Part shown: piece after piece, positions 10,609 through 61,235 of the stretch
Layout of the letters: each line of letters opens with the position of its first letter
Position numbering within the stretch: position 1 is the first letter of the stretch
IMG/VR virus record: IMGVR_UViG_3300048606_000075
Coordinates: 25,816-89,815 of that record
Reading direction: 5' to 3' (one strand)
From: a virus
Lineage: Duplodnaviria > Caudoviricetes
Length of the DNA stretch: 64,000 nt
Made by a program: the position numbers and the translations under genes
Notes under the pieces: model-generated
Databases searched by the model: none
What the model saw: only the letters and a program-made list of their open reading frames with translations
Told to the model about the DNA's origin: nothing

Positions 10609-11804
10609 GTAGGTGTTCCGTGTAGAGATCCTCGCTTCAGCAATGCGTCCACCGACAACGTCCCCATGTCGTCCTCTTGACGACGACACGCCCGCATCAA
10701 CGCGGACACCTCCGCACCGCGCCCGCCAGCCAGGCTCTCCAGCCGAAGCTGCAGCCGCTCCAACACCCGATCCCACGACACCATGCCCGGCAGCGAGCGA
10801 GCGGCTACGCCGGCTCTACGCGCCGTCTCAGCGCGATTGGTGTACAGCTCCAGCATTGTCTCCGCGAGGTGGTCTTCCGATACCACCGCGCCGCGCGCAC
10901 CGGAGGAGATCTCTTTCAGCTCGTACTTCAGCGGCCAGGAGAACTCCGGGCTCATCCACTGCGCATGTCCCCCGACGTTCGTAGCGGCCACCGCCCCGCC
11001 CGAGGTGGCGAACTCGATGGCCGGTCGGTTCTTGCCCTCTCCCCAGGACGGAGCGAGCAGCACATGGGAGCTGCGGTACAGCTGGTAGATCTTCTCGATC
11101 GGCCACACCTCGCCGAAGATGCGCAACCCGGGGCACCACTGCTCCATCGCTGGATGCAGTCCTGGATAGGTTGTCTTCAGAACAAGCTCAGCGTCCTGCA
11201 GCTCGCCCGCATCGCGGAGTGACTTGAATGCGTTGATGGCCGCGAACGGATTCTTCCGATGTGAGAGCGCGCCCACCATGACGAACCGGAACGGGGAGGC
11301 ATTCCAGTCACGCTGCATCGGAGCCAGCGGGTCTACCCCGCCCTGCAAGATGTCTACGCGTTTGTGGTAAGGATCAAGTGCCTGTTTCGACACTTCGTCA
11401 TACGCGAGTACCGCATCAAACCGCGACAGCGCCTTCTCCAGATGCTCTGTCACACGGAAAGAATGCTCGCAGTTCTTAGCATTGAGTGTGTCAACGTTGT
11501 CTAGAGAATCCCATTCCCACATCGACCAGGCCAGTGCCACCGTGGCCACCGAGTACAGCCCAGCGGACTCCGGAGAAGCCGCGAGTTCCTGCGGGCACCG
11601 ATGCGAGATCAACAGATCCACGTGCTCCGGGATCTCTTTGGTCAGCAACGCCGCTACCAGCGGGGGGAGCGGTGGATGAACGCTGGATGGATGCAGGTAC
11701 AGATCCACACCCCAGCGCGCCAAAGCTCGTGCCAACTCAACAATATCATTACCATAACCGGTTATTACATTCGCCGGCCCTGATAAGAGCACTTTCATTG
11801 TCAT
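10605..11804 (-). CDS. GT-B glycosyltransferase (GT4-like)
   Basis: N-terminal TGYGNDIVELARAL; FVMVGALSHRKNP; LAPSWGEGKNRPAIEFATSGGAVAATNVGG (EX7E-type motif); ATGA overlap with upstream gene. Confidence 0.88.
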   Translation of the reverse strand: MTMKVLLSGPANVITGYGNDIVELARALARWGVDLYLHPSSVHPPLPPLVAALLTKEIPEHVDLLISHRCPQELAASPESAGLYSVATVALAWSMWEWDSLDNVDTLNAKNCEHSFRVTEHLEKALSRFDAVLAYDEVSKQALDPYHKRVDILQGGVDPLAPMQRDWNASPFRFVMVGALSHRKNPFAAINAFKSLRDAGELQDAELVLKTTYPGLHPAMEQWCPGLRIFGEVWPIEKIYQLYRSSHVLLAPSWGEGKNRPAIEFATSGGAVAATNVGGHAQWMSPEFSWPLKYELKEISSGARGAVVSEDHLAETMLELYTNRAETARRAGVAARSLPGMVSWDRVLERLQLRLESLAGGRGAEVSALMRACRRQEDDMGTLSVDALLKRGSLHGTPT

Positions 11805-12322
11805 CCTATCGAAAGGCCATAGCGAGCAGAAAGATGAACTCCGCCCTCCCAGTCTCCAACTGGATAAATATCTGGCAAGGCTTGTAACTGAGAACCCCAC
11901 ACTCGCATGCCCGGGTCGGAAGACGTCGACCCCCAGATCTCTGAGAACGCATCTGTCCGATGCAGGACAGCCTGGAAGTACTCCCAGACGGCACGGGCTC
12001 GGGGCTCCGCATCCTTCTTGATTATCGTCTGACTAGAATTCCTAGTACAGTCAGCATAGATGTCGACATAGAGACGGGGAAATCTAGCGGTGTTGTGGGA
12101 ATTAGGCCGAGTCCACGAACCCTCCTCCCGCAGCACCGCCGCTGCCGCACCTGAGCCTTCCACCACGGTCTGAAGCTCGCGCACAAACAACCACACCCCA
12201 GCAGGCGTGAACCCGACAGGCGAGCCCAACGCCGCCGCGATGCCGCTCACGGCGGAGAGTCTGCGGTGAGCGGCGGTCGCCAAATCTGTCGCCGCTAACA
12301 ACTGTAGAAATGGACCGCTCAT
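11801..12322 (-). CDS. probable tail terminator protein
   Basis: 173 aa, last of four neck genes; PRLYVDIYA beta-strand pattern; position-based. Confidence 0.55.
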   Translation of the reverse strand: MSGPFLQLLAATDLATAAHRRLSAVSGIAAALGSPVGFTPAGVWLFVRELQTVVEGSGAAAAVLREEGSWTRPNSHNTARFPRLYVDIYADCTRNSSQTIIKKDAEPRARAVWEYFQAVLHRTDAFSEIWGSTSSDPGMRVWGSQLQALPDIYPVGDWEGGVHLSARYGLSIG

Positions 12323-12348
12323 CGCATCCTCTGACAGGAATTTCTGGA

Positions 12349-12696
12349 TTAACCCTTCACAGAAGCGAACATCGCTTCTTCAAACTGAGAATCCAACACC
12401 TCCATAGGTGCTAAGAAATCGTGGTCGCCACCACGTCGCTGCTCGTATCCGGCATATCCACTACCGTGGTGCACCGCGTCATACGTGACTTCGCCGTGCC
12501 ACTCATCACCATGCACCGAAGACCTAGACGACCCGGAGGCTTTCAACCGTCCGGAGATCACGTGGGTGACCGCCTGGGTCTGGGCAAAGCCCTCCGCGAG
12601 CACGGCGTTCAACGCCTCGCGTACCAGCGGGTGCACCTGCTCGTGTCTGTTGAGCGTCAGCGTCCACTGATGATCATCCAACCAGATACGGAACAT
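12349..12696 (-). CDS. probable neck/tail completion protein
   Basis: TGATG coupling to the head-closure gene; GRLKAS and YAGYE motifs typical of HK97 gp10-like proteins. Confidence 0.55.
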   Translation of the reverse strand: MFRIWLDDHQWTLTLNRHEQVHPLVREALNAVLAEGFAQTQAVTHVISGRLKASGSSRSSVHGDEWHGEVTYDAVHHGSGYAGYEQRRGGDHDFLAPMEVLDSQFEEAMFASVKG

Positions 12697-13097
12697 CACG
12701 ACTCCCCAGCCGAGAGCGCACCCGAAGCAATGCTGGGCGCGACCTCTATGCATTGACCTTCAAGATGATGAAGATGACGCATGTTTTGCGCACGATCAGG
12801 GGCCGTCCGTACCTGCCAGGTGCCGATGATGGGCCCAGAGACGCACTCCAAGTGATCCCCCGGCTGCAGTCGCGTGCCGGGGGCAACCCAATAGACCGCG
12901 ACCCGATCCGGAGCGCGGCCAGCTTGGATCGGCATGGGCATGTCTTTGCCAGGACGATAGAAGTTGACCTCGATGCGGCAGTTGAGCCGGGTCAGCCCCG
13001 CCACCTCTACCCAGGTCGACTCCAAGACGCCGTCCACCATCACCGCGCGTGGCCGCAGCACACGCACGAGACTCGGAAGTAGCCAGGTGGAAATCAT
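12696..13097 (-). CDS. head closure / stopper protein
   Basis: 133 aa; LQPGDHLE..GTWQVRTAPD...HHLE pattern of SPP1 gp16-like proteins. Confidence 0.7.
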   Translation of the reverse strand: MISTWLLPSLVRVLRPRAVMVDGVLESTWVEVAGLTRLNCRIEVNFYRPGKDMPMPIQAGRAPDRVAVYWVAPGTRLQPGDHLECVSGPIIGTWQVRTAPDRAQNMRHLHHLEGQCIEVAPSIASGALSAGES

Positions 13098-29000: not shown

Positions 29001-32000
29001 TCAAAGGCTTTGAAATCACACTTCCATTTTTAATATTCTTCTGGCCGAGCAAAGAGATAGAATTTGTATTATATTGATCGCCATTCTTATGGTACTTAGC
29101 CCACAACAACTTATGATGACTAGTTAAACCAGTGGGGTTCTGCATGTTAGCGTGATACAAATACGCATTAACAGTATCTTCGTCCCAACCGGTGTACTGG
29201 GACACACCACCCTCGGGCCACGAACCAGGCGGCTCTTTACCTGCGGGAAGCTCACCCGGAATGGCCGGAGCTACGGTCTTCTTGGTGAACCCGTTCTTGT
29301 TGTCTGGATGCAGTGGCGAGCCGGGGTGTCCCATCTTCCCCTTGTGACTCTTAACATTGGACGCCTCGATCTCGTACGCCTTGTCCCACTCACCTTTAGT
29401 CCAATGATCCAACCAAGCAACAACATTGGCTTTGGACTGAGTAGACATGTGCAAGCCAACGGCATGTGGATTAGGCGCCTTCTCAGCAAGCTGACCTATC
29501 TTGTACAATAAGGTAGGCTTATCAAAACTAGCAAAATTAGTATTGCCAGGAACACTGACATTAGGGATGTCAACAGTATTGCTAGACAAGTTCGGAGTAG
29601 AAGGCTCTGGATCCTGGGGCAACGGGATCGGCTCCGAAACCGGCAGGCCGTCGAACGCACTGTCGAACTGCTTAACAATGCTTGCTGGTGAGAAATCCTT
29701 TAGTAGCTTTCCATCGCCACTTATCGACTGCATATGTCCATCAGGCGTGAACTTGTAATGCTGAACAGCAGGCGGACTAAAATACCCATTCTTACCAGCT
29801 ATGTATATATTCTGATTAAACTTTATAGCCTTCTGAAAACCCTTAGAAAGCGGAGTAGTATTAATGTCCCAAGTATCCTGATATCCAGCTTTCTTAGCCT
29901 TGACGACTAAATCATCCAACTTCTGCTGATCAGGATCCGGAACATTCACGTCCGGCGCCTTCACCTCTGGCTTGTCAGCAGCGTATTCCACGGTGTGTGG
30001 CTTGAACCCGGCTGAGCCGCCCACCAGATAGGCCGCGAGCGCTTCCGACGACATCGAGTCGGGTCCATCCGGACCCACATGCACAGTGGATCCATCCCCC
30101 AGGGAGTACTCACCGATCAGATGCCCGTGTGAATCTTTGTTGGCACCCTTCATCCAGGAAGGGAGATCTACCTTCTCGGAAGTCGGAGACTTCCCCATCG
30201 ACTGGACATGTGGCTTAGCCACATTCACATGGGTCAGCGAGTCACCGAACTCAGCGTCCTGCACCAACACCGAACCATCCGGGAACACCGTGACACCGCC
30301 AGATTCATCTGGATAGTGTCCGACCTCTACACCATTAACATGAGGCTTACCGTTATCCTCAGATGAATCTGAAATCTTATTCCAGTTACCACTATCAATA
30401 GCTTGCTTTATAACATCAGCAGTAAGATTGGTCTTCTCTTTAGAATGGTGATTTGTCATATAACCAGTGCCGTCTGGATTGACGGTCAGCGACGAGACGG
30501 GAGCACCGGGAGATGTGTACACACCCGGACCAGGCTGATCTGGATCTGCATGCTTCGCGGTATCCGCCTCGATGCCCTTCTCAGGCTTGGCATCTTCAGG
30601 CGCGAAGTGGTCACCAATCTTCGAGATGATTTCCTGCTCAGATAGCGGACCGAAAGAATTGCCTTGATGCTTCGTAACACTGCCGTCTGGATGAATGTCA
30701 TAATCTATATCAGCGGCGTTATCCGCATCATCAGAGAAACTAACACCGTGCTCGCTCTTCAATGCACTCTGGAAAGACGCGGCGAAGCCTTCTGTCTTCT
30801 TCAGGGTTGGAGCGGCCTTGGCGGCTTCGATGATTCCGGCGAGCTTCTTGGAAGACGTTCCCGAGACTTCCGTGATCGCCGGCTTGGCGCTCGAAGCCTC
30901 GGGCACAGCTGGCTCGGCATGAGCCGAATCCATCTCATCGGCCTTAGCCTGAAGTATGGTCGCAACAGCATCCTTAAGCTTGCCGTAGTGAACTTTTCCG
31001 TTGCCTCCCTTGTACGGAGCAGACAACGGATCGCTTTCGATATACGCCTTGATATCCACCTTGGACAACGGTGAATTGATGTCCTTCAACGGACCCTTCA
31101 CGCCGGTCGACGGAGAGTTCTTCACCGCGTTGGCCGCGTCGATCAGATCTTGCTTAGTAACCTTCTGCCCACCGATGACCAGGTGACCCGGAGCGGCCGG
31201 AGCCTTGGGTGGGTTCTCCTTCTGGAACGTGATGTCATCGATCTTCTTCTGCACCGCATCGGACAGCGCGGCCTTCATGCCCTGCGGGTCATCCGGAGCG
31301 GGAATGCCCAGCGCCTTGAGCATGGTTCCCGGGCCAGCCTTGGAGAACTCGTTGCCCTTGACCTGAACGGTGTGGCCCTCAGACTGCGCGCTCTCCGCGT
31401 CGACCAGGTTCTTGTACTGCTTGAGCTGATTCAGCGTGCCTGCCGGAACGCCTGGGAGATTCACCTGTGGGGAGGTGTCCTCCACCTTCGGGGCGGGGCC
31501 CGCCGAGGTGATCGGGGAAGGCTCTGGGCTATCTAAATGCTTGTTCAGTTCCTTATGGATATTGGCGTTCTTCTCGTGCGCTGGTGCGGGAGAGCCGAAC
31601 TTATCCCCGGTCATGAAGTCCCAAGACAAGCCCAGGGCCAGCGGGTTGTGTGACATCTCCTTGAGCTTCTGCTTCCAACTGGAATCAGTGCTCATGTCAA
31701 TGCCATCAAAGAACTTCTGCATCTCCAGGATCTGCGCCTGGGTCGCGTTCACACCCCACACATTCTTGGTGGGCTCCGGGGTGGGGATAGACGGCAGCGG
31801 CGTCGCGGGATGCGAAGTCTGGTGCTTGTCCAACGCATCCTGCAGCAACGCAATGACAGCTGGCTTCAACTTGCCGTAGTGAACTACTCCGGTGCCGCCC
31901 TTAAATGCATCGGTGACGCTAGAGCTATTGGCCAAACCTTGCAGGTCCGCCTTGGCTAACGGGGAGCCGGCCGCCTTGAGCGGCTTCTTCACCCCGGTCT

Positions 32001-34485
32001 CGTTCTTAGGTGAGGCGTTCAGCGCATCCAACGCGGACGAGATCGCCGCAGGCGGATACGGAACGCCGTCCACACTGATGAACCCGGGGCCGTTGTTCTT
32101 GTGGCTATGGCCGTTGGCCTCCGGATCAACGGCATGCAGAGCACTGTGGATCGCTTCATGATCGGCGTGGCCCAGCGAGCCCTGGTGGTCCTTGAGACCG
32201 TGATTCTCCTCCAGGTGGGCAACGGCGGGCGCCTCCGACTTAGGCGTGGATCCGGTGGACGCGAGCGCGTCCTTCAGCACGTGGATCAGCGCTGGCTTTG
32301 TCTTGTTATTGTAGTACGCCTTGAACGGCGCGGCGACCGCGTGGAAATTGCCGGCCGCGAGCGGAGAACCGACCTTCTTCAGGTCTCCCGCCACGTTGCC
32401 AGACGGGTTGTCCTCCAGCGCGTGGATCGCGTTCTGCAGCTGGCCCGAGGTCATCTCGAAGCCGCCGACCAGCGCCTTACCGGTACCCGGAGCGGGCATT
32501 GAGTCCTTGATCGAGTCGCCATCACCCGAGACGTTGTTGAGCTTGGCGATCTGCGATGCGCGAGCGGACGGGTTGTCCGGCCCACCGATCTTGGTGGCCT
32601 GCACGCCCGCGCCCTGCGGGTTGTACTTGATCAGGTCTCCGTCAGGGTTCAGGACATAGAGCGTGTCCTTGGACTTGCCTGACTTGTAGACCTGGGCACC
32701 CTCCTTGACCTGCACCGAGTGCTCACCAACGGAGAACAGCGACGGTCCACCCGAGACCGCGTCTCCGTGCCCGCCATCGGGTGCCTCAGCCTTGGTCGAA
32801 GCGGAAGCGCTTGCGCTGCTCTCGCCGGCCCCAGCGCCTGCTCCCGCGTCGCCTTCCGAGACATGGCCAGAGTCGGCCGAGACAGATCCGGAATCGCTTG
32901 AAGCTGACCCGGAGTCGCCAGAAGACTTGTCTTTCTCAGCCTTCTTCTGCGCGTCCATTTCATCAAGCTTCTTGTGCCAGTCACTCTTAAAGCCCTCTGG
33001 CTCAGTCTCAACAGTCTTGCCTAAATACCCCTTAGCAATTTGCTTAATAGCTGTCTCTTTGAGTGGAATAGACTTCTCAAAGTTCTTAGAATGCAGTCTT
33101 CCGGTACCGTTATCGTGAACTTCAACGCCGCCATGAGAAGGGTGATTAGGGGTCAGATAGTGCCCAGGCGGGAGGGTGCCCTGCTTCTTCTGATCCTCGG
33201 TCGGCTCCAGCACGGGACCCGGACCGTCCGGATCAGGGACATCGGGATCGTCCGAAATCTTCTTCACGTTGCCGTGAGAATCGTGCAAAGTTAAGAACTG
33301 CGCAGTGCTCGCAGCATCAGCATCTTCGGTCTTGCCCTTATGAATGGACGTAGAAGTACCATCCTGATGCACAACAGTATGTGTGTCATCATCACTACCA
33401 GGAAGATCCACACTATAAGTGCCGGGCTTCCACGTCAAATCAGGCTTACCACCCTTGGGGGTGGCGGCCTTCGCTCCCTGTGCCTTAGCCGACAACGCCT
33501 TGGCTTGCTGTGGAGTCACAGACTTGACCTTCATAGCCGGAGCTGCGCTCTCCGGAATCTTCAGACCAGTCTGCGTGTCATAATAGTAACCAGAAACCTG
33601 CTGAACCTTGCCATCAACCACGCGCGTATAAGCACCAACATGCACGATAGTGGCAGCTATGTACTGCGAGCGATCCTTCTCGGATGCGCTCACGAACCAC
33701 TCGGCGTACGCGCGCATGCTCGCGGGCGAGGCACCGGAGCCGGACAGCGAGATCTGATCGGGGAAAATCATCACCAGACTGCACCGACAGTTCGGATGTC
33801 TCGGCGGACCTTCCAGCTTGCCCAGATAGGCAGCCGGCTCAGAAGCCGGTACAGGGAATGCATCACCCAACGGCACATGCACCCCGTGCAAGCGCAGACA
33901 CAGCCCACACGGCGGCGTCAGCAGGTCGAATCGAGCCACCCAGAGCTTGTGCATCTCCGCGCCCAAGGACTCCACCACCGAGGCGAACACCAGCTCGGTA
34001 GCCACCCCACGGCCAGACTGCACCGCTGACACCACGGCGAGCACCGCACGGCGGCGCAGCTCTACCGAGATCTCATCCCTGGTACCGCCGGCCTTCACCA
34101 CAGCAACTTGCCCAACGAGAAAATCTTTAATTATCTTGTCTATGATATCCGAATTAGGAATATCAATCTGAGAAGGTGCATCGATCGAAAGCACGCTAAG
34201 CTGTTGTTGCGCGAACCTGGTGCCCTCCTCCAACCCGGAGGACCACGCACGCCGGATCAGCGCGACCGCCGCCGCGAGCAACACGGCCGTGAGAATCGGA
34301 GAAGGATCGTCCTCCTCATCCTCCGAACCACCCGCTACAGCCACCTCCACCACCGGATAGAGCTGCTGCACCTGAGCAACAAGCTGATCCTCAGCCGTCA
34401 TCGACTGAGCGCGAGACTGATCCACAAGCTGTAGCTGTTGGATCAAGTCTTGCTCGGTTTGAATGACCTGAACCGGAGCGGTCAC
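26005..34485 (-). CDS. giant MuF (gp7/gpF-like) minor head protein with HipA/PI3K-like kinase and putative C-terminal ADP-ribosyltransferase domain
   Basis: KLW...CGLCLRLHG...PPRHPNCRCSL (MuF); FLFKV, AEIEHAAHQLA, DYVTSNDDAHDDNFLL, IPIDIARAF (kinase); THSL..GGLLS..VFTRL..NETL (ART-like). Overlaps the portal stop. Confidence 0.82.
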   Translation of the reverse strand: MTAPVQVIQTEQDLIQQLQLVDQSRAQSMTAEDQLVAQVQQLYPVVEVAVAGGSEDEEDDPSPILTAVLLAAAVALIRRAWSSGLEEGTRFAQQQLSVLSIDAPSQIDIPNSDIIDKIIKDFLVGQVAVVKAGGTRDEISVELRRRAVLAVVSAVQSGRGVATELVFASVVESLGAEMHKLWVARFDLLTPPCGLCLRLHGVHVPLGDAFPVPASEPAAYLGKLEGPPRHPNCRCSLVMIFPDQISLSGSGASPASMRAYAEWFVSASEKDRSQYIAATIVHVGAYTRVVDGKVQQVSGYYYDTQTGLKIPESAAPAMKVKSVTPQQAKALSAKAQGAKAATPKGGKPDLTWKPGTYSVDLPGSDDDTHTVVHQDGTSTSIHKGKTEDADAASTAQFLTLHDSHGNVKKISDDPDVPDPDGPGPVLEPTEDQKKQGTLPPGHYLTPNHPSHGGVEVHDNGTGRLHSKNFEKSIPLKETAIKQIAKGYLGKTVETEPEGFKSDWHKKLDEMDAQKKAEKDKSSGDSGSASSDSGSVSADSGHVSEGDAGAGAGAGESSASASASTKAEAPDGGHGDAVSGGPSLFSVGEHSVQVKEGAQVYKSGKSKDTLYVLNPDGDLIKYNPQGAGVQATKIGGPDNPSARASQIAKLNNVSGDGDSIKDSMPAPGTGKALVGGFEMTSGQLQNAIHALEDNPSGNVAGDLKKVGSPLAAGNFHAVAAPFKAYYNNKTKPALIHVLKDALASTGSTPKSEAPAVAHLEENHGLKDHQGSLGHADHEAIHSALHAVDPEANGHSHKNNGPGFISVDGVPYPPAAISSALDALNASPKNETGVKKPLKAAGSPLAKADLQGLANSSSVTDAFKGGTGVVHYGKLKPAVIALLQDALDKHQTSHPATPLPSIPTPEPTKNVWGVNATQAQILEMQKFFDGIDMSTDSSWKQKLKEMSHNPLALGLSWDFMTGDKFGSPAPAHEKNANIHKELNKHLDSPEPSPITSAGPAPKVEDTSPQVNLPGVPAGTLNQLKQYKNLVDAESAQSEGHTVQVKGNEFSKAGPGTMLKALGIPAPDDPQGMKAALSDAVQKKIDDITFQKENPPKAPAAPGHLVIGGQKVTKQDLIDAANAVKNSPSTGVKGPLKDINSPLSKVDIKAYIESDPLSAPYKGGNGKVHYGKLKDAVATILQAKADEMDSAHAEPAVPEASSAKPAITEVSGTSSKKLAGIIEAAKAAPTLKKTEGFAASFQSALKSEHGVSFSDDADNAADIDYDIHPDGSVTKHQGNSFGPLSEQEIISKIGDHFAPEDAKPEKGIEADTAKHADPDQPGPGVYTSPGAPVSSLTVNPDGTGYMTNHHSKEKTNLTADVIKQAIDSGNWNKISDSSEDNGKPHVNGVEVGHYPDESGGVTVFPDGSVLVQDAEFGDSLTHVNVAKPHVQSMGKSPTSEKVDLPSWMKGANKDSHGHLIGEYSLGDGSTVHVGPDGPDSMSSEALAAYLVGGSAGFKPHTVEYAADKPEVKAPDVNVPDPDQQKLDDLVVKAKKAGYQDTWDINTTPLSKGFQKAIKFNQNIYIAGKNGYFSPPAVQHYKFTPDGHMQSISGDGKLLKDFSPASIVKQFDSAFDGLPVSEPIPLPQDPEPSTPNLSSNTVDIPNVSVPGNTNFASFDKPTLLYKIGQLAEKAPNPHAVGLHMSTQSKANVVAWLDHWTKGEWDKAYEIEASNVKSHKGKMGHPGSPLHPDNKNGFTKKTVAPAIPGELPAGKEPPGSWPEGGVSQYTGWDEDTVNAYLYHANMQNPTGLTSHHKLLWAKYHKNGDQYNTNSISLLGQKNIKNGSVISKPLTAPVPTYGPGQVVPLPHDFPSIDLSKKAAVNLDDSQANTYLDKMGTPKVASFLKKQSLQTKQELISLHAVSAATSNDNTFKEPAVAKKQLGDLLTSIKSSSHWDENSTKELMYSVLSEGANKTFTKDAKQPPLAGHSTIYHVSDENGNPFLFKVAPEPFRAEIEHAAHQLAQLAGIQVATSQLGKFEGQFGQFQAKVPSQSTLKGVSPTSLPVSALKNLMQAHVQDYVTSNDDAHDDNFLLSPDGKHVIPIDIARAFVRFGQPGAVTLKQGQLSNWEQPYYQKVYDAVLAKKLPDASVDELYRASMNQARKTAAVPDKSWSDAMDVGLKNRTNFGMTSAKNKDDLIKQALARKNGLEGEFQKFWDDIYSKLGREKPAPGSNMSKWVHSGFTSEYLDHAEEMGNHGAATFFAGAVLEDGHLLSQVIGKKDGSGKELHISGQLLQQADGNFRAWLEAHVSNDLSGATFDTSTASPEQKFLTDAGLTVFPSAILLAGKTVSHHNKMGDKNYNTMHMEKFEDLKFKLEKKQNDLNGGKVPDAFKDWPEAQLEYANALDFYESQMKKVDDLKATNGQSKMGDFSEYKPTVPPAKVLDNPIDLNKNKPIKVVKKKPVLENSDIGPDGKLTLNGKTGSQGQTGTAYEITLPDGTVINYKSWHPHSNVAKAQHGQLSIKVRDYDGTPTAANEARAALAGMNLDLQDATKDDLQLQYWRSLYGSMGQRSDGKQGIYGEIDKFVAEEIPGGAAGTPAMSAQEELAKWHEAWSRLDKTKFNTFLHEQRYMPRFGRVNPAAPQLFGGQPYWRRFDIDDDWLRQQSMPTHSLSNPSIAPLLVKAGGLLSTENRMQLLGRFIGGASSEADQSHGSSNFVFTRLNGVSPHAQILLSTEVLARTSNYSYGGDNFGEIDNKKSSAHFNMKKQLSHTGSSNETLIKNTVSLLDDIEMITFANQADRQEAIAYLHSHGVTEIRGLPIEDRLVLPANRASALHKIKEHQLTWNPEDEL

Positions 34486-36122
34486 TAGACACTCAACTCA
34501 CTTAGAGCAGCAGTCACCGCATCCTGATCTGCGGATGTCAACGCCAAAACCTCAGGGTCCAGCCACGCCCGAGCGCTGGGCAATCCGTCCGCGCTCAACT
34601 GCGACGGCAGAGCCGGCAAGTTCGTCGGGGCCGATCCTCCAGCGGGCAGCGCGGGGGCTCCACCCGGAGCGCCTCCAGGCATGCCAGGCGGCTGCTTGCC
34701 GGGGATGAACTGCATGTTCGCCGGGACACCGGGCTGCTGATCGGCCGGGACGGTGGGCAGCGGCTGGAACGGCGGCTCCGCCAGCGGCGGGCCCTGCCCC
34801 TCCATGAAGAACTTGAGAGTCTCCTCGGTCTGCTTGTCGAGAGCCTTCTCCAGCTCCTCGTACTCGATATCCAGACCCATCTCCCCGGCCATGTACTTCT
34901 CCAGCTCCAACAGGAACTTTCGAGTCACGTTCGCGCCGGTACCGATAGACGAAAGCTTATCAAACGTTGTCTTGATAGCTTCCTTCTGCTCTTCGGAGAA
35001 GGGTCCGAACTTCAGCGTTGGATACTTATCATTGCCGAAATTCCAGTCCACAAAACGTGGGGTGAGCCAGTCGTTAAAGACGGCTTCCAGCTCGGCGATG
35101 ATGACATTGACCAGCACCAGGTACATGGAGTCGTTGGGGCCGCCGAAGCTAACCAACGGCGAGCCGCCACCCTGTTGGTCATCCAAGAACGGCGCCAGCA
35201 CCGACTTAGACATCTGGCTGTTGTGGTGGTTGATGAAGTCCATGAACGGGAAGTCACCGAGCGACTTGCCCAGATCCTCCACCGACCACCCGACATCCGG
35301 CACGGTCATCGACTGGGCGAGACCGAAGTCCGCCAGTCCGCGCCGGAACTCTAGAAGCTCGTTCGGGTGCGCATTCTTGGGGTACTTACCCAGCCGAGAG
35401 CCCACGGCCCGGTGCTGCGCGGCGAGGTGCGCCAGGTAGTACAGCTTGATCTTTTTGTCATAGTGATAGAACGCGGCATTGAAGTAGGAGACACCGTAGA
35501 ACGGATTCTCCTCTTCCGAGCAGGAATAATAGATCGAAGTCTTAGCGTCGATGTGTTCGTCAATTACTTTGCCGTTAGGCGTGACAGTACGCTGTCTAAA
35601 CCCGTCATAGTCACCTTGCTCTGTCACCACGAAAGATACAGTGTCAGATGGGCGGTACGCAATTTTGTCTAGTGTGTACTTGCCCTTGAGTGGGCCCTTC
35701 TTGGGCCGCGTATAGACCAGCTCGAACGGGGAGAACCCGTCCACCGTGGCCAGCAGCATCTGCGAGACCACCCGAGTGAACGGGGTCTTCATGCCGCCGT
35801 TCACCGCCGGCAGGGTGAACAGCTGGGTGACGAATTCCGCCTCTTTGTCCCCACCATCAGCGGGGATCCACGTGGCGCGCTTCGCGGCTGCCCGGGCAGG
35901 CATGGTGAGCAGCCGAAACAGCGCGCGGGCCTGCCCATCCTGGCGGCGCATCTCGGTGAGCTGCTTGACCGAGGGAACATCGGTCCGGCCCAGCGTGAAC
36001 GACTTGCCGTATTGATCAAAAGCCTCAGCGAAAGGCATGCCGGCAAGCCGGACACCCATCTCCTGATTTAGATCCTTGGCTGTCGGCTTGGCCATTTCCA
36101 AGACGCCGTCATTCTTGGCCAC
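34485..36122 (-). CDS. portal protein (Mu gp29/DUF935-like)
   Basis: Follows terminase; GFSPFELVY and ENPFYGVSYF...A patterns; SD GGAGG 6 nt before GTG 36122. Confidence 0.85.
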   Translation of the reverse strand: MAKNDGVLEMAKPTAKDLNQEMGVRLAGMPFAEAFDQYGKSFTLGRTDVPSVKQLTEMRRQDGQARALFRLLTMPARAAAKRATWIPADGGDKEAEFVTQLFTLPAVNGGMKTPFTRVVSQMLLATVDGFSPFELVYTRPKKGPLKGKYTLDKIAYRPSDTVSFVVTEQGDYDGFRQRTVTPNGKVIDEHIDAKTSIYYSCSEEENPFYGVSYFNAAFYHYDKKIKLYYLAHLAAQHRAVGSRLGKYPKNAHPNELLEFRRGLADFGLAQSMTVPDVGWSVEDLGKSLGDFPFMDFINHHNSQMSKSVLAPFLDDQQGGGSPLVSFGGPNDSMYLVLVNVIIAELEAVFNDWLTPRFVDWNFGNDKYPTLKFGPFSEEQKEAIKTTFDKLSSIGTGANVTRKFLLELEKYMAGEMGLDIEYEELEKALDKQTEETLKFFMEGQGPPLAEPPFQPLPTVPADQQPGVPANMQFIPGKQPPGMPGGAPGGAPALPAGGSAPTNLPALPSQLSADGLPSARAWLDPEVLALTSADQDAVTAALSELSV

Positions 36123-59875: not shown

Positions 59876-59877
59876 TG

Positions 59878-60775: not shown

Positions 60776-60856
60776 AACCGCCCGGGAGATTCGAACTCCA
60801 GCCTCTCGGCTGTGCGCTTTGCAGGCGCACCCTACCTGCCCGGTAAAACGGACGGC
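60776..60856 (-). tRNA. atypical tRNA-Cys(GCA) with 8/4 acceptor/T fold
   Basis: 8-bp acceptor, 4-bp T stem, 6-bp anticodon stem, variable hairpin, U73. Confidence 0.7.
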
Positions 60857-60857
60857 T

Positions 60858-60950
60858 TGGCGGAGAGACCGGGTCTCGAACCCGGACGGGCTCACGCCCC
60901 AAGCGGCTTCCAACCGCTGGTCAGTAGGCCAAAACTTGACTTACCTCTCC
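60858..60950 (-). tRNA. tRNA-Ser(GGA)
   Basis: AGCGG-TTGGAAG-CCGCT; long variable arm; CCA. Confidence 0.85.
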
Positions 60951-60954
60951 AGAG

Positions 60955-61037
60955 CGGAAAGCAGAGGTTCCGACCCCCACGGCTCTTACACCGCTCCGGA
61001 TTTCAAATCCGGATGCATCACCCGATGCTTGCCTTCC
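60955..61037 (-). tRNA. tRNA-Ser(TGA), divergent T loop
   Basis: CCGGA-TTTGAAA-TCCGG; T loop GTCGGAA. Confidence 0.72.
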
Positions 61038-61038
61038 T

Positions 61039-61125
61039 TGGCGGAGAGCCGAGGTATCGATCCCCCAGGCTTTCACCTGTATGCCGCGCTTCGAACGCAA
61101 CTGCGTCACCATCAGCAGACTCTCC
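61039..61125 (-). tRNA. tRNA-Ser(CGA)
   Basis: TTCGAAG loop; G73; CCA; T loop ATCGATA. Confidence 0.78.
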
Positions 61126-61142
61126 AAGACTATTTAGTTGTT

Positions 61143-61235
61143 TGGCGGAGAGACTGGATCTCGAATCCAGACGGGATTGCTCCCCAACGATTTAGCAAAT
61201 CGTGGTCAGTAGGCCGGAACTTGACTTACCTCTCC
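61143..61235 (-). tRNA. tRNA-Ser(GCT)
   Basis: ACGAT-TTGCTAA-ATCGT; CCA. Confidence 0.87.

Follow-up and report, generated by a model that had tools for sequence, protein, structure and literature searches.

Which amino acid does a phage tRNA carry when its cysteine anticodon sits on a cloverleaf resembling that of a selenocysteine tRNA, and does such a molecule work in translation at all? Textbook tRNAs have seven base pairs in the acceptor stem and five in the T stem (7/5). The 8/4 tRNAs were found only in 2016–17 and are valued as an orthogonal chassis for genetic-code engineering. The window, the 64,000-nucleotide stretch of DNA analysed here, makes up the final 64 kb of a virus contig (IMG/VR, 89.8 kb, about 66% complete), and its source DNA was found again in soil metagenomes. 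A dense array of tRNA genes on the minus strand runs from position 59877 to the contig end and is interrupted by two homing-endonuclease ORFs. The array covers most amino acids, and the best tRNA matches to the region are from Streptomyces and Gordonia phages. The gene at 60776..60856 is the sole GCA tRNA among the ARAGORN calls in the array of this approximately 66% complete contig. Because of this degree of completeness, the phage genome may hold a second, canonical tRNA-Cys elsewhere.

The gene is 81 nt long, begins with a 5′ G at 60856, and ends with the discriminator U at 60776. From 60856 to 60776, its minus strand reads GCCGUCCG-U-UUUACC-GGGCA-GGUAGG-GUGCGC-CUGCAAA-GCGCAC-AGCCGAGAGGCU-GGAG-UUCGAAU-CUCC-CGGGCGGU-U. 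The unconstrained minimum free energy (MFE) fold is exactly an 8/4 cloverleaf (−38.6 kcal/mol, z = −2.68; 2 of 200 shuffles were equally stable), and ARAGORN calls tRNA-Cys(GCA), drawing eight acceptor and four T pairs (Table 1). The 8-bp acceptor and the GGAG/CTCC T stem that the sequence-only reading had described are thus found by both programs, and the 6-bp anticodon stem GTGCGC/GCGCAC, the GCA loop, the AGCC-GAGA-GGCT hairpin, and the discriminator U are all in the sequence. The D arm was described correctly in its 5-nt loop but not in its length, since the proposed 5-bp stem TTACC/GGTAG extends to six pairs, UUUACC/GGUAGG. The acceptor stem includes the wobbles G1·U72 and U5·G, and two of the D-stem pairs are U·G. 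A single nucleotide, U60848, precedes the D arm and none follows it. The variable hairpin is flush between the anticodon and T stems, and the T stem is uninterrupted, without the A51a bulge. The loops are intact as well: that of the anticodon has 7 nt, including U33 and A37, the T loop reads UUCGAAU, and the D loop has its GG. The sum of eight and four pairs keeps the normal 12-bp acceptor/T stack. CCA is not encoded, and the bases after the discriminator are CGU.

The outcome that the earlier reading had named as speaking against it, a better-scoring 7/5 fold, was looked for. The forced 7/5 fold has an energy of −36.2 kcal/mol, which is 2.4 kcal/mol worse, and its additional T pair, 49:65, is a U·C mismatch. 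A ninth acceptor pair, A-1:U73, could be drawn on paper; it was rejected because its A directly adjoins the CCA of the tRNA-Ser upstream and its U73 has to serve as the discriminator. The gene differs from canonical class I 7/5 tRNA-Cys in that position 8 is a paired G, the variable region has 12 nt, and the gene falls below the gathering cut-off of the general Rfam tRNA model RF00005. Its best Rfam family is tRNA-Sec (RF01852), with 36.4 bits, under the cut-off of 47. The missed tRNA cut-off, together with a fold z-score that is modest on its own, is what would be seen in a decaying pseudogene or a chance fold. The comparison with related sequences makes this explanation hardly credible.

Table 1. 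Positions of the (8/4) tRNA(GCA) gene, its parts, and the adjoining tRNA genes in the window.
Feature	Position	Strand	Support or remark
Whole (8/4) tRNA(GCA) gene	60776..60856	-	ARAGORN tRNA-Cys, MFE fold, RF01852 36.4 bits, homologue L220
Acceptor 5′ strand GCCGUCCG, 8 nt	60849..60856	-	pairs with 60777-60784
Acceptor 3′ strand CGGGCGGU	60777..60784	-	C60784 pairs with G8 (60849), not with the base preceding the T stem
D arm, 6-bp stem UUUACC/GGUAGG, 5-nt loop GGGCA	60831..60847	-	MFE fold
Anticodon arm, 6-bp stem GUGCGC/GCGCAC, loop CUGCAAA	60812..60830	-	ARAGORN and MFE fold
Anticodon GCA	60820-60822	-	
Variable hairpin AGCC-GAGA-GGCU, 4 bp and GNRA loop, 12 nt	60800..60811	-	MFE fold
T arm, 4-bp stem GGAG/CUCC, loop UUCGAAU	60785..60799	-	MFE fold, ARAGORN; identical in L220
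Canonical 7/5 tRNA-Ser(GGA), upstream	60858..60950	-	ARAGORN and reading/folding
(8/4) tRNA, UGA (Ser) anticodon, discriminator G	60955..61037	-	RF01852 41.5 bits; 8/4 fold −37.6 kcal/mol
(8/4) tRNA-Ser(CGA), encoded CCA	61039..61125	-	read by eye; 8/4 fold −32.8 kcal/mol
Canonical tRNA-Ser(GCU), not called by ARAGORN	61143..61235	-	81% identity over 94 nt to tRNA-Ser(GGA)

On L220, a 1.8-kb soil contig from the metagenome scan, the local genes follow one another as in the window, Ser(GGA)-Cys-Glu. The tRNA(GCA) encoded there has the same length of 81 nt and can be paired with the window copy without gaps, with 16 differences. Fourteen of these form seven double-sided compensatory changes, two in the acceptor stem, one in the D stem, where the third pair is U-A in the window copy and C-G in L220, and four in the anticodon stem, so that four of its six pairs are altered on both sides. 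The remaining two differences are located in the variable tetraloop, where GAGA is replaced by GCAA to give the hairpin AGCC-GCAA-GGCU. There are no one-sided pair changes, and all 28 pairs are preserved.

Contigs from four further soil runs were aligned to the region to compare strains. In runs X4 and X5, the Cys tRNA is unchanged, while the adjoining tRNA-Ser(GGA) differs at about 19 sites. One contig from X6 carries single-base insertions after 60802 and 60808, which produce the hairpin AGCUC-GAGA-GAGCU and extend its stem from four to five base pairs; the depth of this contig is low (3.7), and the matched insertion pair is unlike an error. In run X3, a single contig of depth 4.5 has C>A at 60817, which would disrupt one pair of the anticodon stem and may be an assembly error. 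Because of the compensatory changes in L220 and the strain comparison in runs X4 to X6, we regard the 8/4 core and the variable hairpin as real and under selection, and the pattern of substitutions points to selection maintaining the 8/4 fold. The pseudogene and chance-fold explanations are contradicted by the compensatory pairs, which affect every variable stem, and by the complete conservation of the tRNA across soil samples while its neighbour diverges; the wide family of 8/4 Cys tRNAs described below also speaks against them.

The X6 strain differs from the window in its gene content as well. The stretch with tRNA-Ser(GGA) (window 60850-60954) is swapped for 110 other letters, and the stretch holding Ser(CGA) and Ser(GCU) (window 61047-61233) is swapped for 529 other letters, whereas the Cys, UGA, and Tyr tRNAs are retained. 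Judging from these exchanges, the tRNA array appears to be a mosaic of cassettes.

Reading the array by eye and then folding the candidates revealed three tRNA genes next to the Cys tRNA that ARAGORN had missed, Ser(GCU), Ser(CGA), and the UGA tRNA, two of which were also missed by Rfam. The UGA tRNA, a tRNA-Sec-like gene overlooked by both ARAGORN and the Rfam tRNA model, combines acceptor and anticodon stems of 8 and 6 bp with a 5-bp D stem closed by a 4-nt loop, a 16-nt variable arm, and a 4-bp T stem with the irregular loop GUCGGAA. It is assigned as 8/4 because a 7/5 fold would need a U·U pair. Its strain variants change two T-loop bases and introduce one C·A into the acceptor stem, and its state is therefore less certain than that of the Cys tRNA. 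In the tRNA-Ser(CGA), the acceptor and T stems have 8 and 4 bp, the D stem has 3 bp around a loop of 10 nt, and the variable hairpin consists of five base pairs and a GAAA loop; the gene is 8/4 because a 7/5 fold would need G·G. It has no ARAGORN call and no match to any Rfam family at E-values up to 10. Standard tools (ARAGORN, Rfam) hence overlooked two of the three 8/4 tRNAs of the array, and ARAGORN additionally overlooked one canonical tRNA-Ser. ARAGORN starts tRNA-Ser(GGA) at 60945, 5 nt short of the true pairing acceptor end at 60950. The CCA of tRNA-Ser(GGA) ends at 60858, one base ahead of the 5′ end of the Cys tRNA. At three junctions, Tyr to Ser-GCU, Ser-CGA to the UGA tRNA, and Ser-GGA to Cys, a single A (61236, 61038, and 60857, respectively) separates an encoded CCA from the 5′ end of the next tRNA. 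Because of this arrangement of tRNA, CCA, single A, and next tRNA, the cut of RNase P at one tRNA would leave its neighbour with a 3′ end that is nearly mature.

IMG/VR was scanned with two patterns, both of which left the acceptor stem unspecified; these scans were combined with a pairing classifier and provided 15 further distinct phage tRNA(GCA)/U73 genes with eight paired acceptor positions, the members of this class being chosen partly by a custom pairing filter. The metagenome scan added another member (L233) with a 9-nt variable loop, so that there are at least 16 distinct phage relatives altogether. In the tabulated sequences, position 8 is a purine, and its pair is G-C in ten of 16, A-U in five, and G-U in one. 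The would-be fifth T pair is a mismatch (UU, UC, AC, or CC) in 15 of the 16; the exception is L109, in which it is G·U and a 7/5 reading is also possible. The D stem mostly has 5–6 bp (3–4 bp in three sequences) and a small loop, mostly of 3–5 nt and often GGGU-like. The five inner positions of the anticodon stem are paired, and the sixth, outermost pair is mismatched in 3/16. The anticodon GCA and U73 are invariant across the family. The variable loop is unpaired, with 4–8 nt in the tabulated relatives, and the window copy sets itself apart from the class solely by its variable hairpin. Pair counts were taken from explicit segmentation and from the gap-free pair of the window copy and L220, because MAFFT alignments of the family had the 5′ acceptor strand out of register and the covariance-model alignments A4 and A5 took in canonical tRNAs as well.

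A covariance model based on the window copy together with L220 matches the class genes with 35–51 bits, but not the 8/4 Ser tRNAs of the window. For this reason, we place the window gene in the Cys lineage, with the hairpin gained there, and reject its origin from a tRNA-Ser with an exchanged anticodon. The branch of the window copy and L220 appears to have turned a variable loop of 4–9 nt into a hairpin. The designation of the gene as a non-canonical Cys tRNA in the earlier reading agrees with its GCA and U73, with its occupation of the only Cys slot of the array, and with the phage 8/4 tRNA(GCA)/U73 genes being its nearest relatives by the covariance model.

One type of this class, identical or nearly so, is present in 55 GenBank records of cultured Streptomyces phages, in which it is annotated as plain tRNA-Cys (for example, Jay2Jay 96362-96437). 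The tRNA-Cys genes of the Streptomyces phages Jay2Jay, Samisti12, and Bmoc share the 8/4 core, U73, the CUGCAAA loop, and the GGAG/CUCC T stem with the window gene, and also sit in large actinophage tRNA arrays. They are 74–75 nt long and have an unpaired variable loop of 7–8 nt, whereas the window copy has the hairpin and 81 nt. The blastn program detects no similarity between these genes and the window copy; a blastn search of the region against GenBank phages returned nothing for the Cys tRNA, and a relative of the L160 type has no GenBank match either. Relatives reached through the neighbouring metallophosphoesterase were set aside, as they are just 27–37% identical. Among them is G002, whose tRNA-Cys is of the normal 7/5 type, which shows that the 8/4 form is not universal in large Streptomyces-type phages.

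The earlier reading had called such tRNAs rare variants, which does not hold for phages. When one DNA pattern was applied to both, 8/4-only forms made up 14 of the 39 classifiable matches in phages and none of the 101 in cellular genomes (Fisher p = 2e-9), the latter being a control drawn from among the matches listed and rich in CPR MAGs, not a census. The 55 records of cultured Streptomyces phages are in line with this. Among the 1167 scored ARAGORN tRNAs from all phage loci retrieved, 8/4-only calls account for 10/68 Cys tRNAs versus 10/1099 of the others, and the latter ten comprise five Ser, two Tyr, two Phe, and one Ala, of which the Phe pair looks like simple mismatches. Cys and Ser are the isotypes that are most often 8/4-only in the phage arrays sampled. 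The tRNA-Sec model was rejected as a detector of 8/4 genes: in large related phage records, nearly every tRNA scores 20–40 bits with RF01852, so the model cannot single them out, and the top matches inspected are ordinary 7/5 Ser tRNAs.

Two further types of tRNA(GCA) genes were observed. [quoted passage not shown] The phage tRNA(GCA) genes at L014:2167-2249 (discriminator U), L015:463-543, and L019:3795-3877 have long variable arms on bodies that are 7/5 or have longer acceptors; they are a second, unrelated route for joining a Cys anticodon to a class II body.

We consider the window gene to be, most likely, a functional phage-encoded tRNA-Cys isoacceptor on an 8/4 cloverleaf that would be charged by the host CysRS. 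This reading of the sequence is based on the presence of U73 and GCA, on the status of the gene as the sole GCA tRNA, on the 121 Cys codons (UGC/UGU; 0.84% of codons in the long minus-strand ORFs), and on the preserved 12-bp stack. RNase P, CCA-adding enzyme, EF-Tu, and the ribosome measure this stack, and an 8/4 body keeps its 12 bp. The tRNA would be transcribed together with the minus-strand array. RNase P would cut one base past the CCA of tRNA-Ser(GGA), with the 12-bp stack setting the cut at G60856. The 3′ CCA would be added by the CCA-adding enzyme of the host; none was found on the 89.8-kb contig, which is about 66% complete. The host CysRS would then charge the tRNA through U73 and GCA, and EF-Tu would deliver it to UGC/UGU codons. 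Discriminator U73 and the GCA anticodon are the main identity elements of CysRS (literature quoted in Mukai 2017, PMC5389517). The same source reports that CysRS charges a body of the selC* tRNA-Cys type and that an (8/4) tRNA-Cys with a long variable arm is cysteinylated and used in translation in E. coli. This reading is weakened by the long variable hairpin with U73, by the first pair, which is G·U and not the usual G-C, and by the missing CCA.

The variable hairpin could alternatively recruit SerRS, giving the tRNA a Ser or dual Ser/Cys identity and placing Ser or a mixture of Ser and Cys at UGC/UGU codons. In Mukai 2017 (PMC5389517), allo-tRNAs count as acceptors of Ser irrespective of the anticodon, and Ser identity is seen in a long variable arm with G73 or U73. 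SerRS accepts 8/4 bodies, and an (8/4) allo-tRNA(GAG) placed Ser at Leu codons. The window gene resembles allo-tRNAs, as they are described there, in the 12-bp branch split into 8/4, the 6-bp anticodon stem, the long variable arm, the U73, which is allowed alongside G73, and the long D stem with a small loop, although this loop has 5 nt and not the four of the allo-tRNA tetraloop. The hairpin under selection in L220 and X6 is placed exactly as in the (8/4) UGA tRNA of the window, and its stem of four base pairs with a GNRA loop matches that of the phage tRNA-Ser(GGA). Ser or mixed charging therefore stays a candidate, since a hairpin with U73 resembles this Ser identity. Nevertheless, we consider it unlikely. 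Unlike allo-tRNAs, the window gene has the complete set of CysRS identity elements. The variable arm is absent from its nearest relatives; with their short unpaired variable loops, these can only be Cys tRNAs. Its discriminator is U, in contrast to G in the Ser tRNAs of the phage, and its 12-nt arm is shorter than their arms of 16–17 nt. Serine at Cys codons would harm the phage’s own proteins, in which the 121 codons mentioned above are found, and the array has no other GCA tRNA.

The formal signature of tRNAReC is also present. A tRNA of this kind, similar to selC* tRNA-Cys, would be cysteinylated, carried by the host SelB, and insert Cys at SECIS-linked UGA codons. Under the operational definition of a 2026 paper (PMC13582414), which asks for a minimum of 80 nt, UCA or GCA, and discriminator U, the 81-nt Cys tRNA would be called tRNAReC; UGA recoding with SelB is reported there, after Vargas-Rodriguez 2018, for GCA forms as well. 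The tRNA-Sec-like body, 8-bp acceptor, long variable arm, U73, and GCA (or UCA) are common to the window gene and to selC* tRNA-Cys and tRNAReC. However, the latter come from anaerobic bacteria with a full Sec apparatus and are often located beside selB* and cysS*, whereas the window gene belongs to a soil phage tRNA array. Neither selB* nor cysS* was found on the approximately 66% complete contig: there is no domain match to SelB/EF-Tu (PF00009) or CysRS (PF01406) on its 89.8 kb, which at this completeness is a weak negative, and there is no class II synthetase domain. The delta-proteobacterial 8/4 forms of selC* carry the A51a bulge, which is absent from the window gene. Same-frame ORF pairs on the coding strand are joined by TGA in four cases, as compared with eight for TAG and six for TAA, so TGA is not in excess. 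In addition, the short-loop relatives have 72–79 nt and lie outside the rule. A tRNAReC-like function thus seems very improbable.

The likeness to tRNA-Sec (RF01852) consists of the 8-bp acceptor, the 6-bp D and anticodon stems, and the variable hairpin. The window gene differs from this family in its score below 47 bits, in GCA instead of UCA, in the discriminator U instead of G, in its 12-bp instead of 13-bp branch, and in the lack of a bulge. A minor (8/4) form of tRNA-Sec exists in Actinobacteria and Chloroflexi. The hairpin-bearing branch combines identity marks of CysRS and SerRS substrates in one molecule and adds the tRNAReC signature, because of which annotation may mistake a gene of this kind for tRNA-Sec or tRNAReC.

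As in the (8/4) phage tRNAs of Mukai 2017, the window gene is located in a phage tRNA cluster beside (8/4) tRNA-Ser genes. The published phage 8/4 cases are Ser and His tRNAs, and no phage Cys case was found in the accessible part of that paper (PMC5389517). The 8/4 tRNAs as such, the phage (8/4) Ser and His tRNAs, and the bacterial selC* tRNA-Cys have already been published (PMC5389517; review PMC7609411). The full texts searched contain no account of a phage (8/4) tRNA-Cys class, and the class seems to be undescribed. Particular to this window are the hairpin-bearing branch and its place beside two unannotated (8/4) tRNA-Ser genes. In phages, and apparently only there, the 8/4 cysteine tRNA has recurred as a design under selection. 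Dozens of cultured Streptomyces phages carry it without remark, which makes it directly accessible to bench work.

Why a phage would rebuild the core of this tRNA may be related to host defence. Some toxins of actinobacteria are directed at tRNA-Cys or at tRNA-Ser. The mycobacterial VapC4 acts on no tRNA but tRNA-Cys, which it cuts within the anticodon, and depends on a ‘proper structural context’ (PMC13096801). MenT3 picks tRNA-Ser and uses the variable arm as an anchor (PMC11541572). Phage tRNAs have been proposed to escape such enzymes through changes in the anticodon loop (PMC10264068). Because a Cys tRNA cannot alter its anticodon to escape, we propose re-engineering of the core instead. 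Our preferred guess, which we hold weakly, is that the altered core makes the tRNA a poor substrate for host factors that attack the host tRNA-Cys. The suggestions of the earlier reading that the tRNA may evade host anticodon nucleases or behave differently with EF-Tu or SelB are likewise no more than ideas. By analogy, and as a tentative suggestion that we would not expect to hold in full, the 8/4 core and the 6-bp anticodon stem might evade nucleases yet serve CysRS, EF-Tu, and the ribosome, with the hairpin of the window branch adding dual Ser/Cys or SelB-competent behaviour. The predominance of Cys and Ser among the tRNAs rebuilt as 8/4 in the sampled phages fits this idea, as do the genes for Ro, RNA ligase, and polynucleotide kinase in relatives of the Jay2Jay type. 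If true, this would be a new counter-defence route for phages, based on the core of the tRNA and not on its anticodon loop.

The same repair genes would also suit a tRNA that does not take part in translation and serves as a decoy or sponge for a tRNA-directed toxin or nuclease of the host, or merely as a processing signal of the array. Some allo-tRNA-like genes are inactive in translation and located near toxin-antitoxin systems (Mukai 2017, PMC5389517), and defences that target tRNAs are known to be neutralised by tRNAs of phages (PMC11464382, PMC11555353). A decoy would not require the identity elements GCA and U73, yet both are invariant across the family, and all helices, the anticodon loop, the T loop, and the D-loop GG are intact and conserved. 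We therefore regard a purely non-translating role as improbable and retain the working Cys isoacceptor as the main reading.

Two observations were made in the genome of Jay2Jay (L240). For the tRNA-Ser(gct) at 34693-34776, 8/4 is likewise the better reading, with a single U·U among its acceptor pairs. The loci 11083-12732 and 29905-32451 encode a Ro-like protein, a T4-type RNA ligase, and a polynucleotide kinase, which together form a tRNA repair kit.
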